Source: Candidatus Bathyarchaeia archaeon (GTDB lineage Archaea; Thermoproteota; Bathyarchaeia; 40CM-2-53-6). From it: DNA of 64,000 bases. Positions 19,161 through 61,806 of this stretch are shown here, one piece after another. Location: contig JBEKFP010000002.1 in NCBI GenBank assembly GCA_050013255.1, forward strand, positions 128,001 to 192,000, in the 5' to 3' direction. The translations under genes were made by a program, and so were the position numbers. The notes under the pieces are model-generated. The model searched no databases. It had not been told where the DNA came from and saw only the letters and a program-made list of their open reading frames with translations. Numbering within the stretch: position 1 is the stretch's first letter; each line of letters opens with the position of its first letter.

Positions 19161-19457
19161 CTACTTGGGTGGGAGTGGTAGCCCTCGGCAGCCCACCTTT
19201 CCGCGCACTCGGCGGTTGAAGTTCGGGCAGGTGAAACATTCAACGAAAGATACGACCTTCAACTTTACTGGGCAGTCGACGGCTTCCTTCTTCATCTTCG
19301 CCAGCATCTTGCCTTTAACCGCCCCTTTGATGGCTTCCAAGTATTCCTTCGGGGTCGGAACCGCCTTGGGCGGAGAGAATATGTCCACTAGGTACTTGTC
19401 ATCCTCACCCAACTGAACCGGCGTCTTATCATCCGCAGGCGGAGTAGGTTCGCTCAT
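19161..19457 (-). CDS. Small hypothetical protein with 4 Cys (putative metal-binding)
   Basis: EAVDCP...VECFTCPNFNRR...VGC; ATG at 19457 preferred. Confidence 0.75.
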   Translation of the reverse strand: MSEPTPPADDKTPVQLGEDDKYLVDIFSPPKAVPTPKEYLEAIKGAVKGKMLAKMKKEAVDCPVKLKVVSFVECFTCPNFNRRVRGKVGCRGLPLPPK

Positions 19458-19559
19458 AAGGGACTCAAGCTTCGGAATGGGCTTCATGCAATTCAATAAA
19501 ACACTTTCGAACAGGTATCAGCTGAATATCCAGCACGTCCATGGTATCGCCAATGCAAC

Positions 19560-54635: not shown

Positions 54636-57389
54636 ATGTCAAGTCAACTTGATGATTTGGAACGATATGTGCAGGCGCCTTCAGAACCTGAAGAGAACCT
54701 GGAGTGGTGGCGCAGGTTCAGAATATTGCGTTGGTTGAACTACGTACCGCTTCGTGCTGTCGATAAGGATTACGCGAAATGGCGGAAATCGCGAATATCG
54801 CCGAGGAAGTTCAGAAAAATACAGCAGCGCTTGGATAAGCTCTACCCGCCAGACAAATTCTCCTCAGTCAAACTCATCGGGCGCGAAAAAGAATACAACC
54901 TCCTGTTGGATTCTTTCAGGCTCCACGTCCTAAAGCACCCAATGCTTCGAAAATGGTTCGATAAAGACGAACTTCCGAAGGCCATCTGCCTAACCGGGGA
55001 AAGTGGAACCGGTAAGACTTTCCTCACGATGGTTTCTCTAAAGCAGATGCTACTTGAAGCCCACTCAAATGGCGTACTGCTCTCACCAATAATCATCAAA
55101 GGATCCGATGTCTTCTCAGAATACTACGGGCGGAGCACCAAGCAATTGAGTCGATTATTGGAGCGTGCTGCTTCAGCCCCTTCAGTGATCTACATAGATG
55201 AGTTCCAGAGTTTTGGAAAGAAGGTGAGAGGTGATTCTGGCACAGAACTGGAAGACACACGAGTTCAGGACGAGATAAACAGATGGCTCGATAAGATCCT
55301 AAGCAACGACGCACGCACCTTGGTAATTGTCGCTACAAATTCCTATGAACAAACGCGAGAAGACATTCGCCGCCGACTATCGCGGGTCGACCTTGACTCA
55401 GGAGTCACCCACGAGATGCTGCTGGCGATCATAAAGGACAGATTGTCAAGCGAAAGTTGGCGCGGAATTTCATCAGGTGAGATATTAGAGGTCTTGGAAA
55501 GAGAAGCGTCAATGCGCCGGCACGGTTCCATCACCCCAAATGATGTCCTAAGCGTTTTTAGAGAAGTGAAACGCGCGAAAGAGGTTCCACTGCTCGAGGC
55601 AATTCGAAGGTCTGTGCCTGGTCCGTTGTCCAAGTGGACCAAACCTAGGTACAGGGTAAGCCTCGAGGATTTTGCTCAGGCAGCGCACACGATGAAGTTC
55701 TATTCTGAGCGTGAAAAGTCGCAGGAAATTAGGGACGCGGTTTACATCGTCACCCCGAAGGATTCCAGAGAAGACATCGGCGGCCTTCATGACCTTAGGG
55801 ACAAAGTACTGAACCACATATCGCTCGCCTTCAACCGGAAAATGTCGGAGCTCGGATACGCCTCCAATTGTAGGTTCTTGCTGTTTGGGCCGCCAGGTAC
55901 CGGGAAGACGCTCCTCGCATTGGTTGCTGCAGCTGAGAATCGAGTTGCCTTCATCAAAGTCAGGGGAGGTGAACTGATGAGCGGTGCAAGTTACATAGGT
56001 GAACCCGAGAAACGGATTAAGGATCTATTTGCACTGGCCAGGCAGAGAACTCCGTGCATTCTTTTCCTCGACGAAGCCGACGCGATTTTCTGGGGAGCTG
56101 ACCCAACAGGTAACAAGATTCTTGCGCAAATAAAGGCCGAGTTGAGCGAGATTAAACCTGACGAAGGAATTGTGGTTATCGCCGCATCCAACAAGGAAAA
56201 TCTGATTGACCAAGCTACTAGGGATCGGTTCGAACCAAACGTATACTACGTACATCCACCGTTGAACGATGGTGAATGGAACGAGGTTGTGGAGATCCAC
56301 CTCAGAAAGTTCAGAAGGTTTCTACATCAGGAGATTGACCCGGCAAAAATCACACGGCTATTTAGAATGCAACGAATCTTGAGCCCGAGAGCTGCAGCCG
56401 AAACCATCTCCGAGGCACACAGGTTATGGGCTTCAGAATTGAGTGCGGTGGATGAGATTCGGACAGCTAAGGATGAGCAGGAGAAGCTCTTCGTCAAGAA
56501 GCGATACGAAGCGGACCTGAAACGGCTCCAATCCGTGATTGAAATGGAAGGCCACAAGTTATCGATGGAAAAAGTCGACGAGACTTGTTACCCAATCCGC
56601 CTGTACCACTTCGAAAGGGCAATTCAAGCGCTGGAGTCTAGCCAAGACAAACAGCGAAGAGAAATGGAAGAAGCCCTCATTCTGACCACGCCCACACCTG
56701 GAGCTTCATTCGGCCTCTACGCTGCTGATGATGGAACCGGTGGAATAATCACCGTAGAATGTTCAAGTAGACCGATAATCCCGGGAGAGAGACTCGTCTC
56801 CATAACAGGCAATTCCACTTCGATGATTGTAGGTCAGTCCGTCGTTCCGGACGAATCGGTTCTACAGAGCGCGCAAAACGCCGTAGAAGCGGTTAGGTCC
56901 TGGCTTTGGACGGCGTGCAACATGGACCTCAGCCGTTTGCATGTGCATTTCCAAGTTAGAAGCCTATTAGAAGGTGCCCCGGGGCAGGGAGTATCAGGGC
57001 CGAGTGCCGGTTTGGCGATGGTCCTAGCACTTTTCTCGGAACTTTCAGGCGTTCCGATTTCGCCTTCAATTGTTGCTACAGGAACAATCGGAGTTAAGCA
57101 TGACGTTGGCCCCGTAGGCGGACTAGGAGGGTACGGAACTCAGACTGGGAAGATTGTTGGAATCCTGAAGTCGAGACGTATACGTGTCACAGATTTGGTG
57201 TTGCCCATTGCAAACTTCGAAGCGGCGAGAGATGAAATGAGGATTCTGCAAGAAGAGGGGGTTTGCGTTCATCCTATACGTAACGTAGCAGAATGCTTGG
57301 AAGTTGTGTTCGGTGTTAGCGAACAGGGATTGATTGGAGAGATAAAAGAAAGGTACGAGACAGCTGCGATGCTAACTCAGCGGGCTTAG
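54636..57389 (+). CDS. Tandem classical-clade AAA ATPase fused to a Lon-type (S16) protease domain
   Basis: D1 GESGTGKT, IYIDE, ATN...IRRR; D2 DIGGL, GPPGTGKT, LFLDEAD, ASN..LIDQATRDRF; C-terminal VHFQ, GPSAG, ATGTI, PVGG...GK and VLPIAN. Confidence 0.88.
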   Translation: MSSQLDDLERYVQAPSEPEENLEWWRRFRILRWLNYVPLRAVDKDYAKWRKSRISPRKFRKIQQRLDKLYPPDKFSSVKLIGREKEYNLLLDSFRLHVLKHPMLRKWFDKDELPKAICLTGESGTGKTFLTMVSLKQMLLEAHSNGVLLSPIIIKGSDVFSEYYGRSTKQLSRLLERAASAPSVIYIDEFQSFGKKVRGDSGTELEDTRVQDEINRWLDKILSNDARTLVIVATNSYEQTREDIRRRLSRVDLDSGVTHEMLLAIIKDRLSSESWRGISSGEILEVLEREASMRRHGSITPNDVLSVFREVKRAKEVPLLEAIRRSVPGPLSKWTKPRYRVSLEDFAQAAHTMKFYSEREKSQEIRDAVYIVTPKDSREDIGGLHDLRDKVLNHISLAFNRKMSELGYASNCRFLLFGPPGTGKTLLALVAAAENRVAFIKVRGGELMSGASYIGEPEKRIKDLFALARQRTPCILFLDEADAIFWGADPTGNKILAQIKAELSEIKPDEGIVVIAASNKENLIDQATRDRFEPNVYYVHPPLNDGEWNEVVEIHLRKFRRFLHQEIDPAKITRLFRMQRILSPRAAAETISEAHRLWASELSAVDEIRTAKDEQEKLFVKKRYEADLKRLQSVIEMEGHKLSMEKVDETCYPIRLYHFERAIQALESSQDKQRREMEEALILTTPTPGASFGLYAADDGTGGIITVECSSRPIIPGERLVSITGNSTSMIVGQSVVPDESVLQSAQNAVEAVRSWLWTACNMDLSRLHVHFQVRSLLEGAPGQGVSGPSAGLAMVLALFSELSGVPISPSIVATGTIGVKHDVGPVGGLGGYGTQTGKIVGILKSRRIRVTDLVLPIANFEAARDEMRILQEEGVCVHPIRNVAECLEVVFGVSEQGLIGEIKERYETAAMLTQRA

Positions 57390-58318
57390 ATATCCAGTTT
57401 CAGTGATTCTTTGAGGCCCTTGTACCTGTTCCGGACAGTAACTTCAGTAACGTTAGCTACCTCAGCTATCTCCTTCTGGGTCTTCTTTTCCCCTTCTAGG
57501 ACGCACGCTACGTAGAGTGACGCTGCCGCAAGCCCCATGGGGTCTTTTCCGGCAACAATTCCCTTCATCTTTGCCTCGTTGATTATCTTAATCGCACGTT
57601 GCTGTGTGGGCATTGAAATTTCGACTTTCGTGGCAATCTTCGAAATGCATTTAACCGGATCTTCGACTGGCATTCGGAGGTCTAATTCGCGGACGAGTAG
57701 TCTATAACACCTTGCAACATCTTTCTTTCGAATCCTACTCGCAGCGGACACGTCTTTCAGTGTTCTCGGGGTTTCGGAAATCCTACAAGCTGCATAGAGT
57801 GATGCTGCGGCAATTGCAGCTATCGAACGACCTCTGACAAGTCCGTTGTCGAGGGCTTTTCTGTAGACTATGGCAGCTCGTTCCTTTATGGAGGCTGGTA
57901 TGTGCAACATGTCTGTTAGGCGGTCAAGTTCGGCCATTGCTTGAGCAAGATTCCTATCGGCCGAGGAGTGTACACGTGTTCTGATTTGCCACTTCCTTAG
58001 GCGAAGCATTTCAAGCCTGGTTGCTAGCGGAAGTTGACGACCGTACGCGTCTCGGTTGACGCGGTCGATGACCGTTGAAAGGCCCTTATCATGAATAGAG
58101 AATGACGTTGGGATACCCACGCGCCCGCGTTCATCCTTCTCTTCCTTCGTGAAGGCACGCCATTCGGGCCCTTGGTTCAGGGAATGTTCGCTGATAACCA
58201 AACCGCAATTCTGGCAGATTATCTCGCCTTGATCATAGTCCTCTACTAAGTTCGTGCTCCCACATTCGGGGCAGTTGGTTAGTTTTCCAACTTTCTTCGT
58301 TGTCGTGCTCGCACTCAA
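57386..58318 (-). CDS. tfb: Transcription initiation factor IIB
   Basis: CPECGS...CQNCG zinc ribbon, GPEWRAF, HDKGLST, LVRGRS and VTEVTVRNRYK. Confidence 0.97.
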   Translation of the reverse strand: MSASTTTKKVGKLTNCPECGSTNLVEDYDQGEIICQNCGLVISEHSLNQGPEWRAFTKEEKDERGRVGIPTSFSIHDKGLSTVIDRVNRDAYGRQLPLATRLEMLRLRKWQIRTRVHSSADRNLAQAMAELDRLTDMLHIPASIKERAAIVYRKALDNGLVRGRSIAAIAAASLYAACRISETPRTLKDVSAASRIRKKDVARCYRLLVRELDLRMPVEDPVKCISKIATKVEISMPTQQRAIKIINEAKMKGIVAGKDPMGLAAASLYVACVLEGEKKTQKEIAEVANVTEVTVRNRYKGLKESLKLDI

Positions 58319-58604: not shown

Positions 58605-58856
58605 TCAATCAAGCGCCTTCCGGAAGTATACGTGATCAGATTCTCTACGCAAGAAACGTGCGTACCTTCCACATTCCGATACGAGCATGGGTTGCAAGTC
58701 GTCGGGGGATGTGATGACTTCGATATTCAAGACTCTAAAACGGTTCTGTTCCGGATCTTTGCCGAACAGCTTTCGGAAATCGTCGAGGGCGAGTTCAGGT
58801 GACAGCGGATCCTTCATGTCAATGACCACTGGGATCCTTCTGATTGGTACTTTCAC
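58605..58856 (-). CDS. Small protein, last gene of the crenactin operon (arcadin-3-like position)
   Basis: GTG at 58856 lies 7 nt after the upstream stop; similar to 19161-19457. Confidence 0.65.
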   Translation of the reverse strand: MKVPIRRIPVVIDMKDPLSPELALDDFRKLFGKDPEQNRFRVLNIEVITSPDDLQPMLVSECGRYARFLRRESDHVYFRKALD

Positions 58857-58863
58857 GACTACT

Positions 58864-59529
58864 TCAACCGGCAATAGGCTCGTCTCCAGATCTGCCGCGT
58901 TTGGAAAGAACATCTAACCAGGGGTTATTCGAAAAGAAAGCCGGAAGTTGTGACCCAGAAATACTGGGGCTGGGAAATATAGGTTCGTGTCGAGCAATCC
59001 GAGAAAGCGTGGGTTCTCTTGTATCTGTTTGCGTCTCGGAATTGCGCCTTAAGGTTTTCAGGTCGTCGCGAAGTGTGGCTATGGTTCTCTCCATTTCCGT
59101 GTACATTGATTTCAAGCTGGCCAGTTCAGTGAATAGACCTGGGTCGGGAGTCTGAGATGTTTGTGCCATCAGCTTTGTGGGTTGCACTAGTTGCGGAGCA
59201 ACGACTTCGTCGATCCTGCGTTCGTCGAAAAGGAGCAAGCCTATTCCATAAGGCTTGAAGACTGCGGCGTCAATGGAAGCTCCCAGTAATCGTGGTGCGG
59301 CCAAATAGAGGAATTGAGATGAATTCCGAAGGGACGTCAGGCTGAGTATGGCCTCAATAACCCTGTTTCTCTCAACGAAATCCTCGCTCCTCAAAATGAC
59401 GACATGAACTTTCTCGGAACCTGAAATGAATGCGAGGTTATTTTGCGGTATTTCGGACTTTTCGGTCTGATGCATGCCCATTGCTAGAAAGTAGTGAAGC
59501 AACCTGTCCTCGATAGGTAAGTCAGCCAC
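58864..59529 (-). CDS. Arcadin-2-like crenactin-binding protein
   Basis: Overlaps the crenactin stop by 8 nt; alpha/beta domain, coiled coil, then terminal NNPWLDVLSKR resembling the arcadin-2 C-terminal helix (recalled as ENEWVKILRSKR). Confidence 0.7.
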   Translation of the reverse strand: MADLPIEDRLLHYFLAMGMHQTEKSEIPQNNLAFISGSEKVHVVILRSEDFVERNRVIEAILSLTSLRNSSQFLYLAAPRLLGASIDAAVFKPYGIGLLLFDERRIDEVVAPQLVQPTKLMAQTSQTPDPGLFTELASLKSMYTEMERTIATLRDDLKTLRRNSETQTDTREPTLSRIARHEPIFPSPSISGSQLPAFFSNNPWLDVLSKRGRSGDEPIAG

Positions 59530-60799
59530 TGAGCTTCATCCACCCCTCGAGGCGTTGCCAATCCCACCCGTAGTTATCAGGGACAGCGAAGCCATAGATT
59601 ATGCAGCCATGCCAGACCGAAAATTGAGGTGATTTTGTCATCTTGACGGAGACATTCTTGATTCCCTTCTGTCGAAGTAGCAACTTGATTTTTGTGGGGG
59701 CGTCGACCGCAGTATCTTCGAGGCGTTCAGGAACGATCCAGCTGAAGTTCCCGCCAGACAACAACACCTCACGGTAGAGCATCGGTTGGAGTTCAACTGG
59801 GCAGCGCTCTACTGAGGCAACAATGGCATCGCCGAAGTCTAGCATCCCGCGGAATATGGTATCGCCCATCTTAACGTCCCTAGGTCTCGGCATGCCGCGC
59901 CCGAAGTAGCTCTCGAAAATTTCGTGGTTCGGGTTAAACACGTATTCGCCAATCAGGAACCTACTCCACGAGTCTTTTTCTAAGTCAATCTCGACCCTGG
60001 TTCCTGGTACTTTGTACTTGGCCCTGAATTTTCGTGGCGACCTCTTCGCTTCATCTACGGCAGCGTCGAGGTCTGCCGGTACAAGCCCTATGTTTTCCTT
60101 GACTTTACGAACAAAAGCCTCTTCGTTGGCAAGGTCTCCGTATCCCGCGTCTTTCAATATCTCAGACGTAATTGCGTTTGCGTCGCCACCGCCTCGGTTG
60201 AGAACAACTTGCGCTGCGCGGATGGGGTACTTAGAGATAGGGCAGACTTGACTATTGCCATGCCCGGATTCGATCACGACGCAAGTTGTCACACCATGAC
60301 CGATTGCGACGGCGAACGGCTGAGGTATGACTGTTATCGCCTTGACATTTCCATTAGCGTTGTTTTGTCCGAAGAGTTCTAGGAGCCGTTCGTACATGTA
60401 GCGTGGTGATACTGACGAGAGTGACGCTACGACGTAGTATCCTTGGAAGCCATTGTTTGGTTCGGGTTTGAAGCTATTCAACCCGAAGTTAGTTAGGGCG
60501 CTTACCACTCGCCATGCAGTGTCATCGGCCCTGTCGATCATGCCGTTACGCATGGGATAAACTAAGCGACTTGATAGGTCATCGGCTGACTGTAGGTAGA
60601 GTGGAACGTCTTCTCCCACAATGATTTCATCTGTCGATTCAAAAGCCTTGTACACAACAGAGTTCTTGTCGGGAAAGTAACCTCGGTTGTTGACGATTCT
60701 CGGCGTCTCGCCGCATGTTATTGGACCAAACTTGAAGTCGCTTGTCCCGAAGTCCATAGCGAAAGTGTAGTGGCTTCGATAGTCGGTTTCTGCGGTCAT
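59522..60799 (-). CDS. Crenactin (archaeal actin homolog)
   Basis: YTFAMDFGTS.FKFGPIT, YPMRNG, PQPFAVAI, IESGHGNSQV.PIS, LNRGG..ANAIT.EILKD.GY, WSRFLIGE, LSGG.FSW and PQFSVW.G.IIYG...EGW follow the Pyrobaculum crenactin motif order. Confidence 0.92.
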   Translation of the reverse strand: MTAETDYRSHYTFAMDFGTSDFKFGPITCGETPRIVNNRGYFPDKNSVVYKAFESTDEIIVGEDVPLYLQSADDLSSRLVYPMRNGMIDRADDTAWRVVSALTNFGLNSFKPEPNNGFQGYYVVASLSSVSPRYMYERLLELFGQNNANGNVKAITVIPQPFAVAIGHGVTTCVVIESGHGNSQVCPISKYPIRAAQVVLNRGGGDANAITSEILKDAGYGDLANEEAFVRKVKENIGLVPADLDAAVDEAKRSPRKFRAKYKVPGTRVEIDLEKDSWSRFLIGEYVFNPNHEIFESYFGRGMPRPRDVKMGDTIFRGMLDFGDAIVASVERCPVELQPMLYREVLLSGGNFSWIVPERLEDTAVDAPTKIKLLLRQKGIKNVSVKMTKSPQFSVWHGCIIYGFAVPDNYGWDWQRLEGWMKLSG

Positions 60800-60987
60800 G
60801 CTCTCGACTCCTCTACAACCAAGCGATTGCCATCGATCCGCACTACGACCTCTTGATCTGGGCTGAACGGGAATGATGAATCTTTGACAATATCGGCTGG
60901 GATGTACAGAATCCCTGTTTTACTTCGATTGCTGCGGGTTGGTAGGATCATTTTTGCATAGCCTTCGAGCATCAGGTATTTCACCAT
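60796..60987 (-). CDS. Small AbrB/SpoVT-like swapped-hairpin protein, first gene of the crenactin operon
   Basis: LYIPADIVKDSSFPFSPDQEVVVRIDGNRLVVE; ATGA overlap with the crenactin start. Confidence 0.75.
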   Translation of the reverse strand: MVKYLMLEGYAKMILPTRSNRSKTGILYIPADIVKDSSFPFSPDQEVVVRIDGNRLVVEESRA

Positions 60988-61117
60988 GCAATCAACAATG
61001 CAAACTAGCTGCCCTTGAGTTGGAGATTTAACGGCGCCAGGGAAGGCTGGGGGTAGTGAGTCGAGTAAAACTAAAGCGCACTCCTAGGATAGGAACGTTG
61101 GATGAGGGCCCACCTAA

Positions 61118-61543
61118 ATGGTCACCTACATAACGCGGGACCAACTGCAATTCATAATGAACCATGCTCGTTCGACGTATCCTGAGGAGTGCTGCGGCTT
61201 TCTCTTGGGCAGTGATTCTGACCCTCGAATAATAGGGCGCGCGCTATCGGCCCAGAACACCAATCGAGGTTCGCGCAAAAATCGATTCAACATTGATCCG
61301 ATGGAACTCGTACGGGCGGACGAAGAAGCACATAGGGCCAACCTCGATTTGATAGGAATCTATCACTCACACCCTGACGGACCTCCTCAGCCTTCGCAGG
61401 TCGATCTAGAGAACGCGTGGCCATGGTATACCTATTTGGTTGTATGTGTGGAAAACGGAGAACCAAAGGGCGTGGCAGCATGGATCCTCAGTGAAGACCG
61501 CTCGACGTTTCATCTTGAAGATATGAGAGTCATGGCTGATTAA
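61118..61543 (+). CDS. JAMM/MPN+ (M67) metallopeptidase
   Basis: PEECCGFL and YHSHPDGPPQPSQVD (E...HxH-x7-S-x2-D). Confidence 0.92.
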   Translation: MVTYITRDQLQFIMNHARSTYPEECCGFLLGSDSDPRIIGRALSAQNTNRGSRKNRFNIDPMELVRADEEAHRANLDLIGIYHSHPDGPPQPSQVDLENAWPWYTYLVVCVENGEPKGVAAWILSEDRSTFHLEDMRVMAD

Positions 61544-61548
61544 GCGGA

Positions 61549-61806
61549 TCAAGGGAATCTTACAGATTCCTCTACCTCAACAGAAAAGCCAATTTGGTTT
61601 TGTTCTGCCACGGGCTTCAATATTTCTTCAATTCGATTCCTCTGCATGCTAGGGCCCTCATAGGTGAGCGAGAACTCTTTTCCAGGTACTACGACCGAGT
61701 GAACTTCTTTTTTGAACCCAGCGGTGGCCAATGCTGTGTCGACTTCCTTTAGAGCTTGAATCGGGAAAGCTTCGCCCTTCGAAGAGAGGTTTACTAATAG
61801 TAGCAT
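61549..61806 (-). CDS. Small hypothetical protein (ferredoxin/ACT-like pattern)
   Basis: 85-aa ORF with alternating beta/alpha pattern; convergent with the JAMM gene. Confidence 0.6.
   Translation of the reverse strand: MLLLVNLSSKGEAFPIQALKEVDTALATAGFKKEVHSVVVPGKEFSLTYEGPSMQRNRIEEILKPVAEQNQIGFSVEVEESVRFP

Follow-up and report, generated by a model that had tools for sequence, protein, structure and literature searches.

A four-gene crenactin–arcadin-2 operon in Bathyarchaeia: a probable lineage-specific variant of the arcade cluster

In Pyrobaculum calidifontis and other Thermoproteales, the arcade cluster is made up of the genes for arcadin-1, crenactin, arcadin-2, arcadin-3 and arcadin-4 (Ettema et al. 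2011 as cited in PMC5173319; Izore et al. 2016). In P. calidifontis crenactin Q164 is the catalytic glutamine, and mutation of V339/E340 blocks polymerization. The last 17 residues of arcadin-2 (187–203) bind the hydrophobic groove of crenactin via a tryptophan with nanomolar affinity, and this tail depolymerizes crenactin filaments (PMC5173319). Outside the Thermoproteales, the available text of Kohtz et al. 2022 (PMC9723716) places arcadin-1 and arcadin-2 with crenactin in Caldarchaeales (Aigarchaeota) and marine Culexarchaeia, and that of Saw et al. 2015 (PMC4571567) places crenactin in MCG/Bathyarchaeota single-cell genomes, so that it has been on record there since 2015. Here we analyze a crenactin locus in a 64 000-nucleotide stretch of DNA (the window) from a Candidatus Bathyarchaeia archaeon, in which crenactin and arcadin-2 lie between two small genes of other families. 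The window is C2:128001–192000 of a 2.46-Mb genome in three contigs, rated 100% complete by marker genes. To our knowledge no prokaryotic protein outside the Asgard archaea is structurally closer to F-actin than crenactin, and arcadin-2 is its only partner with a known mechanism, all such knowledge coming from one hyperthermophile genus.

Four open reading frames (ORFs) run in the same direction on the minus strand between 60987 and 58605, encoding in turn an AbrB/MazE-like protein (the leader), crenactin, arcadin-2 and a small fourth protein (Table 1). The four frames and the first two overlaps are as described in the initial annotation made from the DNA alone. The 7-nt gap that it placed at the last junction stands up less well, requiring the fourth gene to start at the GTG at 58856. 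The ORF that ends at 58605 has candidate starts at 58856, 58874 and 58913. When 19 related loci are lined up, other families of the order show an ATG located exactly 8 nt before the arcadin-2 stop codon, and this genus a TTG at the same spot. In the window this is the TTG at 58874, which would generate an 11-nt overlap and an 89-aa product; many database relatives are equally long. We therefore regard the overlap as more likely than the gap. Given the conserved position of this start all three junctions are probably overlaps, in agreement with translational coupling of the genes.

The gene order recurs throughout the Bathyarchaeia genus in question and in the larger part of the order, so that the arrangement is not a matter of chance. 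Crenactin is kept in this layout in 19 of the 22 genomes of the genus, and all four genes are found in it across five families of the order. By sequence comparison this is a genuine and conserved four-gene crenactin–arcadin-2 operon, and a variant of the arcade cluster. We found no paper that describes this four-gene layout, nor one on an AbrB-like gene with crenactin, and only passing mentions in the literature on arcadins in Bathyarchaeia. The closest public contigs, with crenactins 78–95% identical to that of the window, are mostly from Candidatus Bathyarchaeia/Bathyarchaeota metagenome-assembled genomes (MAGs) of peat and soil projects. A handful of nearly identical ones carry bacterial bin labels, probably through mis-binning.

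The 425-aa protein is a crenactin in which the residues predicted to serve ATPase activity and polymerization are kept, and here the initial annotation was correct. It aligns with P. calidifontis crenactin (PDB 4cj7) over residues 6–421 with an E value of 2.5e-101, while its best match to a eukaryotic actin is at 7e-10. The NCBIfam crenactin model matches over its full length (positions 1–422) with 536.6 bits, compared with 40.7 bits for MamK and 52.5 bits for Pfam Actin. Q160, V335 and E336 align with Q164, V339 and E340 of the Pyrobaculum protein, and D16, G18, T19, E177, G179–N182 and S348–G350 are invariant in an alignment of 22 crenactins. In a quick maximum-likelihood tree of 64 crenactins, calculated without an actin outgroup, the window protein lies inside the crenactins, within a Bathyarchaeia clade with a support of 99 in the Shimodaira–Hasegawa-like approximate likelihood ratio test (SH-aLRT). 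Beside this are the clades of the Culexarchaeia and Caldarchaeales, with the Thermoproteales on the other side. This is the sole actin-family gene that we found in the genome.

The 221-aa protein, earlier labelled arcadin-2-like, can be assigned as a genuine arcadin-2 from its end-to-end alignment with the P. calidifontis protein and a common tail motif. BLASTP aligns residues 3–211 with 2–203 of P. calidifontis arcadin-2 at 25% identity and E 6e-6. Against Vulcanisaeta/Caldivirga-type copies the E values are 1e-10 to 1e-7 (best 9e-11), and against the Thermoproteales copies L065–L068, L075 and L080 they are 9e-11 to 2e-6. The protein has an N-terminal globular domain, a coiled coil, a linker and a C-terminal docking helix. 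The central part matches coiled coils only. For the N-terminal domain (~110 residues) a search for relatives in PDB and Pfam gave only coiled-coil noise, and one in the ESM Atlas only Bathyarchaeota hypothetical clusters. The tail has the consensus LPSFxxDNPWxEILSKRG, strongly conserved in 57 distinct arcadin-2 tails. In the window it reads LPAFFSNNPWLDVLSKRG, and it is the Pyrobaculum tail, ENEWVKILRSKR, that is the divergent one. N202, W204 and L208 are invariant in a 23-sequence alignment that includes Pyrobaculum, Vulcanisaeta-type and Thermofilum-type proteins, and P196 and P203 are nearly invariant across the aligned Thermoproteota lineages. No other carrier of a crenactin-docking tail was found in the genome. 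By analogy, we expect the tail to act by the same mechanism as that of Pyrobaculum arcadin-2.

How does the locus compare with the arcade cluster of the Thermoproteales? In both, arcadin-2 is the next gene after crenactin, encoded on the same strand and with a coupled start, its architecture and tryptophan-containing C-terminal helix are shared, and there is one small gene directly 5′ of crenactin and another directly 3′ of arcadin-2. However, the leader is AbrB/MazE-like and not arcadin-1, which is unlinked here, while the 89-aa gene is unrelated to arcadin-3 and no SMC/Rad50-like arcadin-4 follows it. The crenactins are 41–50% identical. The sets of Caldarchaeales and Culexarchaeia are like the present one in lying outside the Thermoproteales and in combining crenactin and arcadin-2 with an incomplete arcade set. 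Indeed a Culexmicrobium locus (L037) has crenactin, arcadin-2 and the fourth gene, whereas in Caldarchaeales arcadin-2 is upstream of crenactin and the fourth gene is absent. Neither the fourth gene nor the AbrB-like leader is mentioned in the available text of PMC9723716 and PMC4571567. The crenactin–arcadin-2 core is ordinary and already explained; the novelty lies in the families of the two partners and in an arcadin-1 that is unlinked.

How general is the fourth gene? Among 401 Thermoproteota genomes crenactin is found in 138 and the fourth gene in 20. One of the 20 matches is weak and probably a paralogue. The other 19 are strong, and 18 of them are in crenactin-positive genomes; the odd one comes from the end of a contig, in a bin that is 85% complete and has no crenactin. 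Of these 18 copies, 17 are found ~0.7 kb downstream of a crenactin gene read from the same strand, a spacing that leaves room for arcadin-2. Carriers of the gene include a MAG of Culexmicrobium and another that bears the label Nitrososphaeria, and in the crenactin tree the lineages carrying it form the larger clade around the Bathyarchaeia (SH-aLRT 91). Since the gene occurs almost only beside crenactin and arcadin-2, we take its product to be a dedicated member of the crenactin–arcadin-2 module, and the protein is most likely a direct accessory of the pair.

The fourth protein belongs to a family of 337 clusters at 90% identity, nearly all of the named ones being called hypothetical. Most members have four cysteines (C...ECxxC...C), three of which are replaced in this genus, by serine, tyrosine and phenylalanine. 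Its AlphaFold2 model has a predicted local distance difference test (pLDDT) score of 94.5. It has no known family, and fold searches came back equally empty. Foldseek against PDB gave only E > 1, and VIA-align against 48,161 chains gave Z ≤ 2.7. By shape, the ESM Atlas returned only the family itself, a hypothetical cluster from Nitrososphaerota and, as a weak lead, TackOD1 at a template-modelling score (TM) of 0.49 over 58 residues; by features it returned nothing above 0.81. Identity with arcadin-3 was rejected (hhalign 0.2%), as was identity with the product of the 110-aa gene that precedes crenactin in loci of the Vulcanisaeta type (again 0.2%). Prediction of a complex with crenactin and arcadin-2 scored 0.25 against a mark of 0.32, which counts neither for nor against binding. 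A bolder proposal, to which we give slightly less than an even chance, is that the protein is a ‘fifth arcadin’ that would bind arcadin-2 and/or crenactin through a new fold. It would then define a second, non-Thermoproteales type of arcade in Bathyarchaeia, Culexarchaeia and other Thermoproteota, the leader being a dedicated regulator in this order.

Elsewhere in the window there is a 111-aa four-cysteine protein, the gene for which adjoins that of F420-0:gamma-glutamyl ligase. By hhalign (80%, E 1.3e-5) its C-terminal 38 residues match the cysteine module seen in the fourth-gene family, and the protein is possibly a distant paralogue in which the ability to bind metal persists.

The leader is kept upstream of crenactin in five families of the order, and its orthologues have the consensus xLEGxAKIILPxRxxRSKTGILYIPADxVKDSSFPFxPDQEVVVRIDGKRLVVE. 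Its relatives in a profile search of 1.84 billion representatives number 506, and almost all of them are 50–90 aa long. The leader resembles the AbrB/MazE/SpoVT proteins (PF04014) in size, in the pattern xIPxDxVxD...V.V.IDG.RLVVE and in its sub-threshold matches. It differs in lying below the Pfam cut-off, in an invariant DSxFPF motif and in having no toxin partner. Being below the cut-off, it is treated as AbrB/MazE-like and not as a filed member of the family. The earlier label of AbrB-like is weakly supported by the domain-like pattern and the sub-threshold matches, the cut-off never being reached.

Upstream of the leader is a motif, TTTAGTTTTACTCGACTCA, made up of columns that are at least 80% conserved in 22 aligned upstream regions. 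It is present also at loci where the AbrB-like gene does not adjoin crenactin. In its strict form there is a single copy in the genome; a search for a regulon found looser copies elsewhere only at chance level. The TTAAAT box that lies between the motif and the leader is a putative promoter element. The most economical reading is that the leader would be a small DNA-binding autoregulator acting at the upstream motif.

The leader might instead be a structural accessory that binds crenactin and replaces arcadin-1, rather than a transcription factor. Its position and its translational coupling to crenactin are those of Pyrobaculum arcadin-1, and the beta-hairpin motif at its end is similar, the profile alignment covering that stretch only. 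Because of this position and terminal hairpin the leader was tried as a shortened arcadin-1, and it failed. The hhalign probability is 2% against Thermoproteales arcadin-1 and 0.2% when the comparison is with the arcadin-1-like family of this genome, sequence and profile searches of PDB were empty, and the arcadin-1 structure 5ly5 was not among the results of the fold searches. Moreover, paralogues in unrelated contexts and some 500 representative relatives look more like a general family of small regulators or adaptors. We therefore consider a structural role unlikely, and keep to that of autoregulator.

Two paralogues with the DSxFPF motif of the leader family are found elsewhere in the genome, in unrelated contexts. 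One has a basic C-terminal tail, and the other has an overlap with the beginning of a gene for a DnaJ-like protein with a J domain and cysteine-rich region. In other Thermoproteota lineages the place of the leader directly upstream of crenactin is taken by a protein of 160–210 aa, for which Pfam gave no match.

What has become of the other arcadins? There is no Arcadin_1 match within the window. The single match in the genome is on contig C1, where a 105-aa ORF scores 27.8 bits with PF18653 (cut-off 25) over model positions 3–101 of 111. The family of this unlinked protein aligns with Thermoproteales arcadin-1 over 96 columns (hhalign 96.7%, E 3.8e-10), and the gene is present in 21 of the 22 genomes of the genus. 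Neither an arcadin-3 nor an arcadin-4 orthologue was found in the genome with the queries used. For arcadin-4, tblastn and searches of the hidden Markov model type matched only the Walker-A regions of a 1196-aa SMC protein and a 650-aa SMC-like protein, and the reciprocal search in P. calidifontis failed to return arcadin-4. The initial annotation had recognized no arcadin-1 or arcadin-4 here, had proposed a search of the whole genome for all the arcadins, and had spoken of a different accessory set. That is true of the window, and of the locus with its AbrB/MazE-like and 89-aa genes. For the genome it is overstated, given the divergent arcadin-1 on another contig.

The unlinked arcadin-1 gene is preceded by the same gene for an 88-aa beta-barrel protein in 10 of 11 related loci compared. 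This protein has a weak match of the EF-Tu-domain-2 type, and the two may form a pair. The 650-aa protein is an SMC_N-family ATPase, and after it comes a 262-aa protein weakly matching the C-terminal, kleisin-like part of Nse4. This looks like an SMC5/6-like pair and not an arcadin-4 orthologue.

Our preferred interpretation, which we hold to be very probable, is that we have here the cytoskeleton operon of this Bathyarchaeia archaeon, built on crenactin and a lineage-specific variant of the arcade, working in the following way. Crenactin, an actin-fold ATPase, would polymerize into F-actin-like double filaments. Arcadin-2, probably dimerized by its central coiled coil, would insert its C-terminal helix into the hydrophobic groove of crenactin, in competition with the D-loop of the next subunit, with the result that monomers would be sequestered or filaments dismantled. 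The 63-aa leader would most likely autoregulate the operon by binding the conserved upstream motif, and the 89-aa protein, with its translational coupling to arcadin-2, would most likely assist crenactin and arcadin-2 directly. The divergent unlinked arcadin-1 may bind crenactin too. The regulated actin filament system put forward in the initial annotation is thus well supported by homology, in the ATPase and polymerization residues of crenactin and the docking helix of arcadin-2.

A number of observations must be set against this interpretation. Crenactin at 536.6 bits is under the NCBIfam equivalog cut-off of 630 bits. This cut-off is reached by none of 41 relatives and by 40 of the 138 crenactin-positive Thermoproteota genomes, all with proteins of the Thermoproteales type. 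It divides the Thermoproteales from all other lineages, and so measures closeness to Pyrobaculum-type crenactin and not membership of the family. The fourth protein has neither a Pfam family nor a solved fold. The leader scores 13.5 bits (E 0.069) with Pfam MazE_antitoxin PF04014 where the cut-off is 24.7, and the matches in 7 of 19 leader orthologues and 16 of 71 wider relatives are also below cut-off, the best having an E value of 1.2e-5. The model of the leader monomer is weak (pLDDT 70.8) and without clear structural match; with this model Foldseek found VapB and MazE chains at probabilities of 0.13–0.23, and VIA-align gave Z ≤ 3.5. With a sub-threshold Pfam match and a weak model, the regulatory role of the leader is a guess. 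Lastly, the contamination of the genome bin is estimated at 8.55%, yet the arcadin-1 gene on the other contig is common to the genus.

What might such a system do in the cell? No Tubulin/FtsZ match was found in the genome, while 13 of 14 control genomes matched. Genes for Vps4 (MIT and AAA domains) and a Snf7/ESCRT-III-like protein lie together at ~C2:266–269 kb, and this suggests Cdv-type division without FtsZ. With these genes present and FtsZ missing, a function for crenactin in shape or organization is likelier than one as the sole agent of cytokinesis. A cytokinetic machinery built on crenactin has been proposed for the Thermoproteales (reviewed in PMC7613921 and PMC10936438), and the lack of an FtsZ match in a genome rated complete would fit it. 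Against this, the Vps4 and ESCRT-III-like genes offer a route of the Cdv type, and the Thermoproteales proposal is itself called inconclusive in review. We think it doubtful that this is what the system is for, and a role in cell shape or internal organization, rather than in division alone, is more likely. A gene for an AsnC/Lrp-type helix-turn-helix protein lies in a row with those for Vps4 and Snf7.

The functional analogue of the crenactin–arcadin-2 pair named by Izore et al. is the plasmid partition system ParMRC, which is also an actin-fold filament former whose partner places a C-terminal helix in a hydrophobic groove. It is therefore conceivable that the locus encodes a DNA-positioning or segregation machine, with arcadin-2 as a ParR-like adaptor whose tail caps crenactin filaments, and its N-terminal domain or the AbrB-like protein holding DNA. 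The arcadin-2 tail does bind as ParR binds in the groove of ParM (PMC5173319), in P. calidifontis arcadin-2 is reported to lie between nucleoids that have segregated (cited in the available text of PMC9723716), and the operon is headed by a possibly DNA-binding protein. Yet the locus is chromosomal, its filament is of the crenactin family and arcadin-2 shows no relation in sequence to ParR. We saw no array of centromere-like repeats, the motif upstream of the operon occurs once, with genomic copies not above chance, and the N-terminal domain of arcadin-2 has no detectable DNA-binding family. Pyrobaculum arcadin-2, moreover, depolymerizes filaments in vitro and does not stabilize them (PMC5173319). 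This makes a segregation machine improbable, a shade more so than a cytokinetic one.

Least credible of all, to the point of being barely worth entertaining, is a toxin–antitoxin-like or mobile module formed by the AbrB/MazE-like gene and its downstream neighbour and unrelated to the cytoskeleton: a small MazE-like gene with an ATGA overlap is the usual antitoxin–toxin arrangement, but the idea is contradicted by the identity of the downstream gene, which encodes crenactin at full length and with its ATPase motifs intact. The locus, moreover, is syntenic and lies on the chromosome, its crenactin tree follows lineage grouping, and no toxin family was matched among the domain searches.

As a crenactin cytoskeleton operon, the locus indicates that mesophilic Bathyarchaeia of soil and peat keep the crenactin–arcadin-2 core and swap its remaining partners. 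Of the two small proteins, one accompanies the core in several classes, and the other stands at the head of the operon in a single order. Proteins of 63 and 89 residues are cheap and concrete targets for studying how archaeal actin is regulated. With no FtsZ, together with ESCRT-III/Vps4 and crenactin, this abundant uncultured group should be useful in separating the roles of actin in shape and division.

Table 1. Positions of the operon, its elements and related features. Coordinates without prefix are those of the window; C denotes contigs of the genome and L individual loci.
Feature	Coordinates	Strand	Basis or remark
AbrB/MazE-like gene (leader), 63 aa	60987-60796	-	stop overlaps crenactin start as ATGA (4 nt)
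Crenactin gene, 425 aa	60799-59522	-	
Arcadin-2 gene, 221 aa	59529-58864	-	GTG start, 8-nt overlap with crenactin stop
Fourth gene, 89 aa (83 aa with GTG 58856)	58874-58605	-	start inferred from conserved ATG/TTG position
Arcadin-2 residues 195-212, predicted crenactin-groove-binding tail LPAFFSNNPWLDVLSKRG	58894-58947	-	alignment across Thermoproteota lineages
Upstream motif TTTAGTTTTACTCGACTCA, candidate operator/promoter element	61057-61075	-	conservation in 22 upstream regions
TATA-like box TTAAAT, 38 nt 5′ of first ATG	61026-61031	-	conserved TTAWAT column block
Divergent arcadin-1 homologue, 105 aa	C1:930514-930792 = L083:1486-1803	-	PF18653 above cut-off
88-aa protein preceding unlinked arcadin-1	L083:1884-2150		weak EF-Tu-domain-2-like match
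160-210-aa proteins upstream of crenactin, other lineages	L041:5471-5995, L050:5502-5999, L053:4761-5243, L035:5352-5960, L058:5364-5993		
Leader-family paralogue	L097:1372-1704	+	DSxFPF motif
Leader-family paralogue	L098:1477-1713	-	DSxFPF motif
111-aa four-cysteine protein	19161-19496	-	hhalign with fourth-gene family
650-aa SMC_N ATPase and 262-aa protein	C2:322909-325652 = L099:1410-4153	-	weak Nse4 C-terminal match in second protein
Vps4-like MIT-AAA ATPase, AsnC/Lrp-type protein, Snf7/ESCRT-III-like protein	C2:266459-268740 = L100:960-3241		
Flanking genes	54636-58318, 61118-61806		
P. calidifontis arcadin-1	L077:7640-7999		
P. calidifontis crenactin	L077:8007-9314		
P. calidifontis arcadin-2, 203 aa	L077:9341-9952		length as published
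P. calidifontis arcadin-3	L077:9988-10158		
P. calidifontis arcadin-4	L077:10136-12523		

The operon is flanked in the window by genes for the transcription factor TFB, a fusion of double-AAA and Lon-type protease, a Prok-JAB/MPN protein and an 85-aa protein. That for TFB comes directly after the fourth gene, and its product is 91–99% identical across the genus. Synteny of the TFB, AAA-Lon and JAB neighbours with the operon is limited to the genus, and we therefore draw no functional link between them.

In several relatives the crenactin gene is spread over two or three frames or contains stop codons (L055, L057, L063, L064, G008, G013, G016, G017, G033 and G036), and in L064 that of arcadin-2 is likewise broken. 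These split frames look like assembly frameshifts in some of the MAGs rather than decay of the genes.

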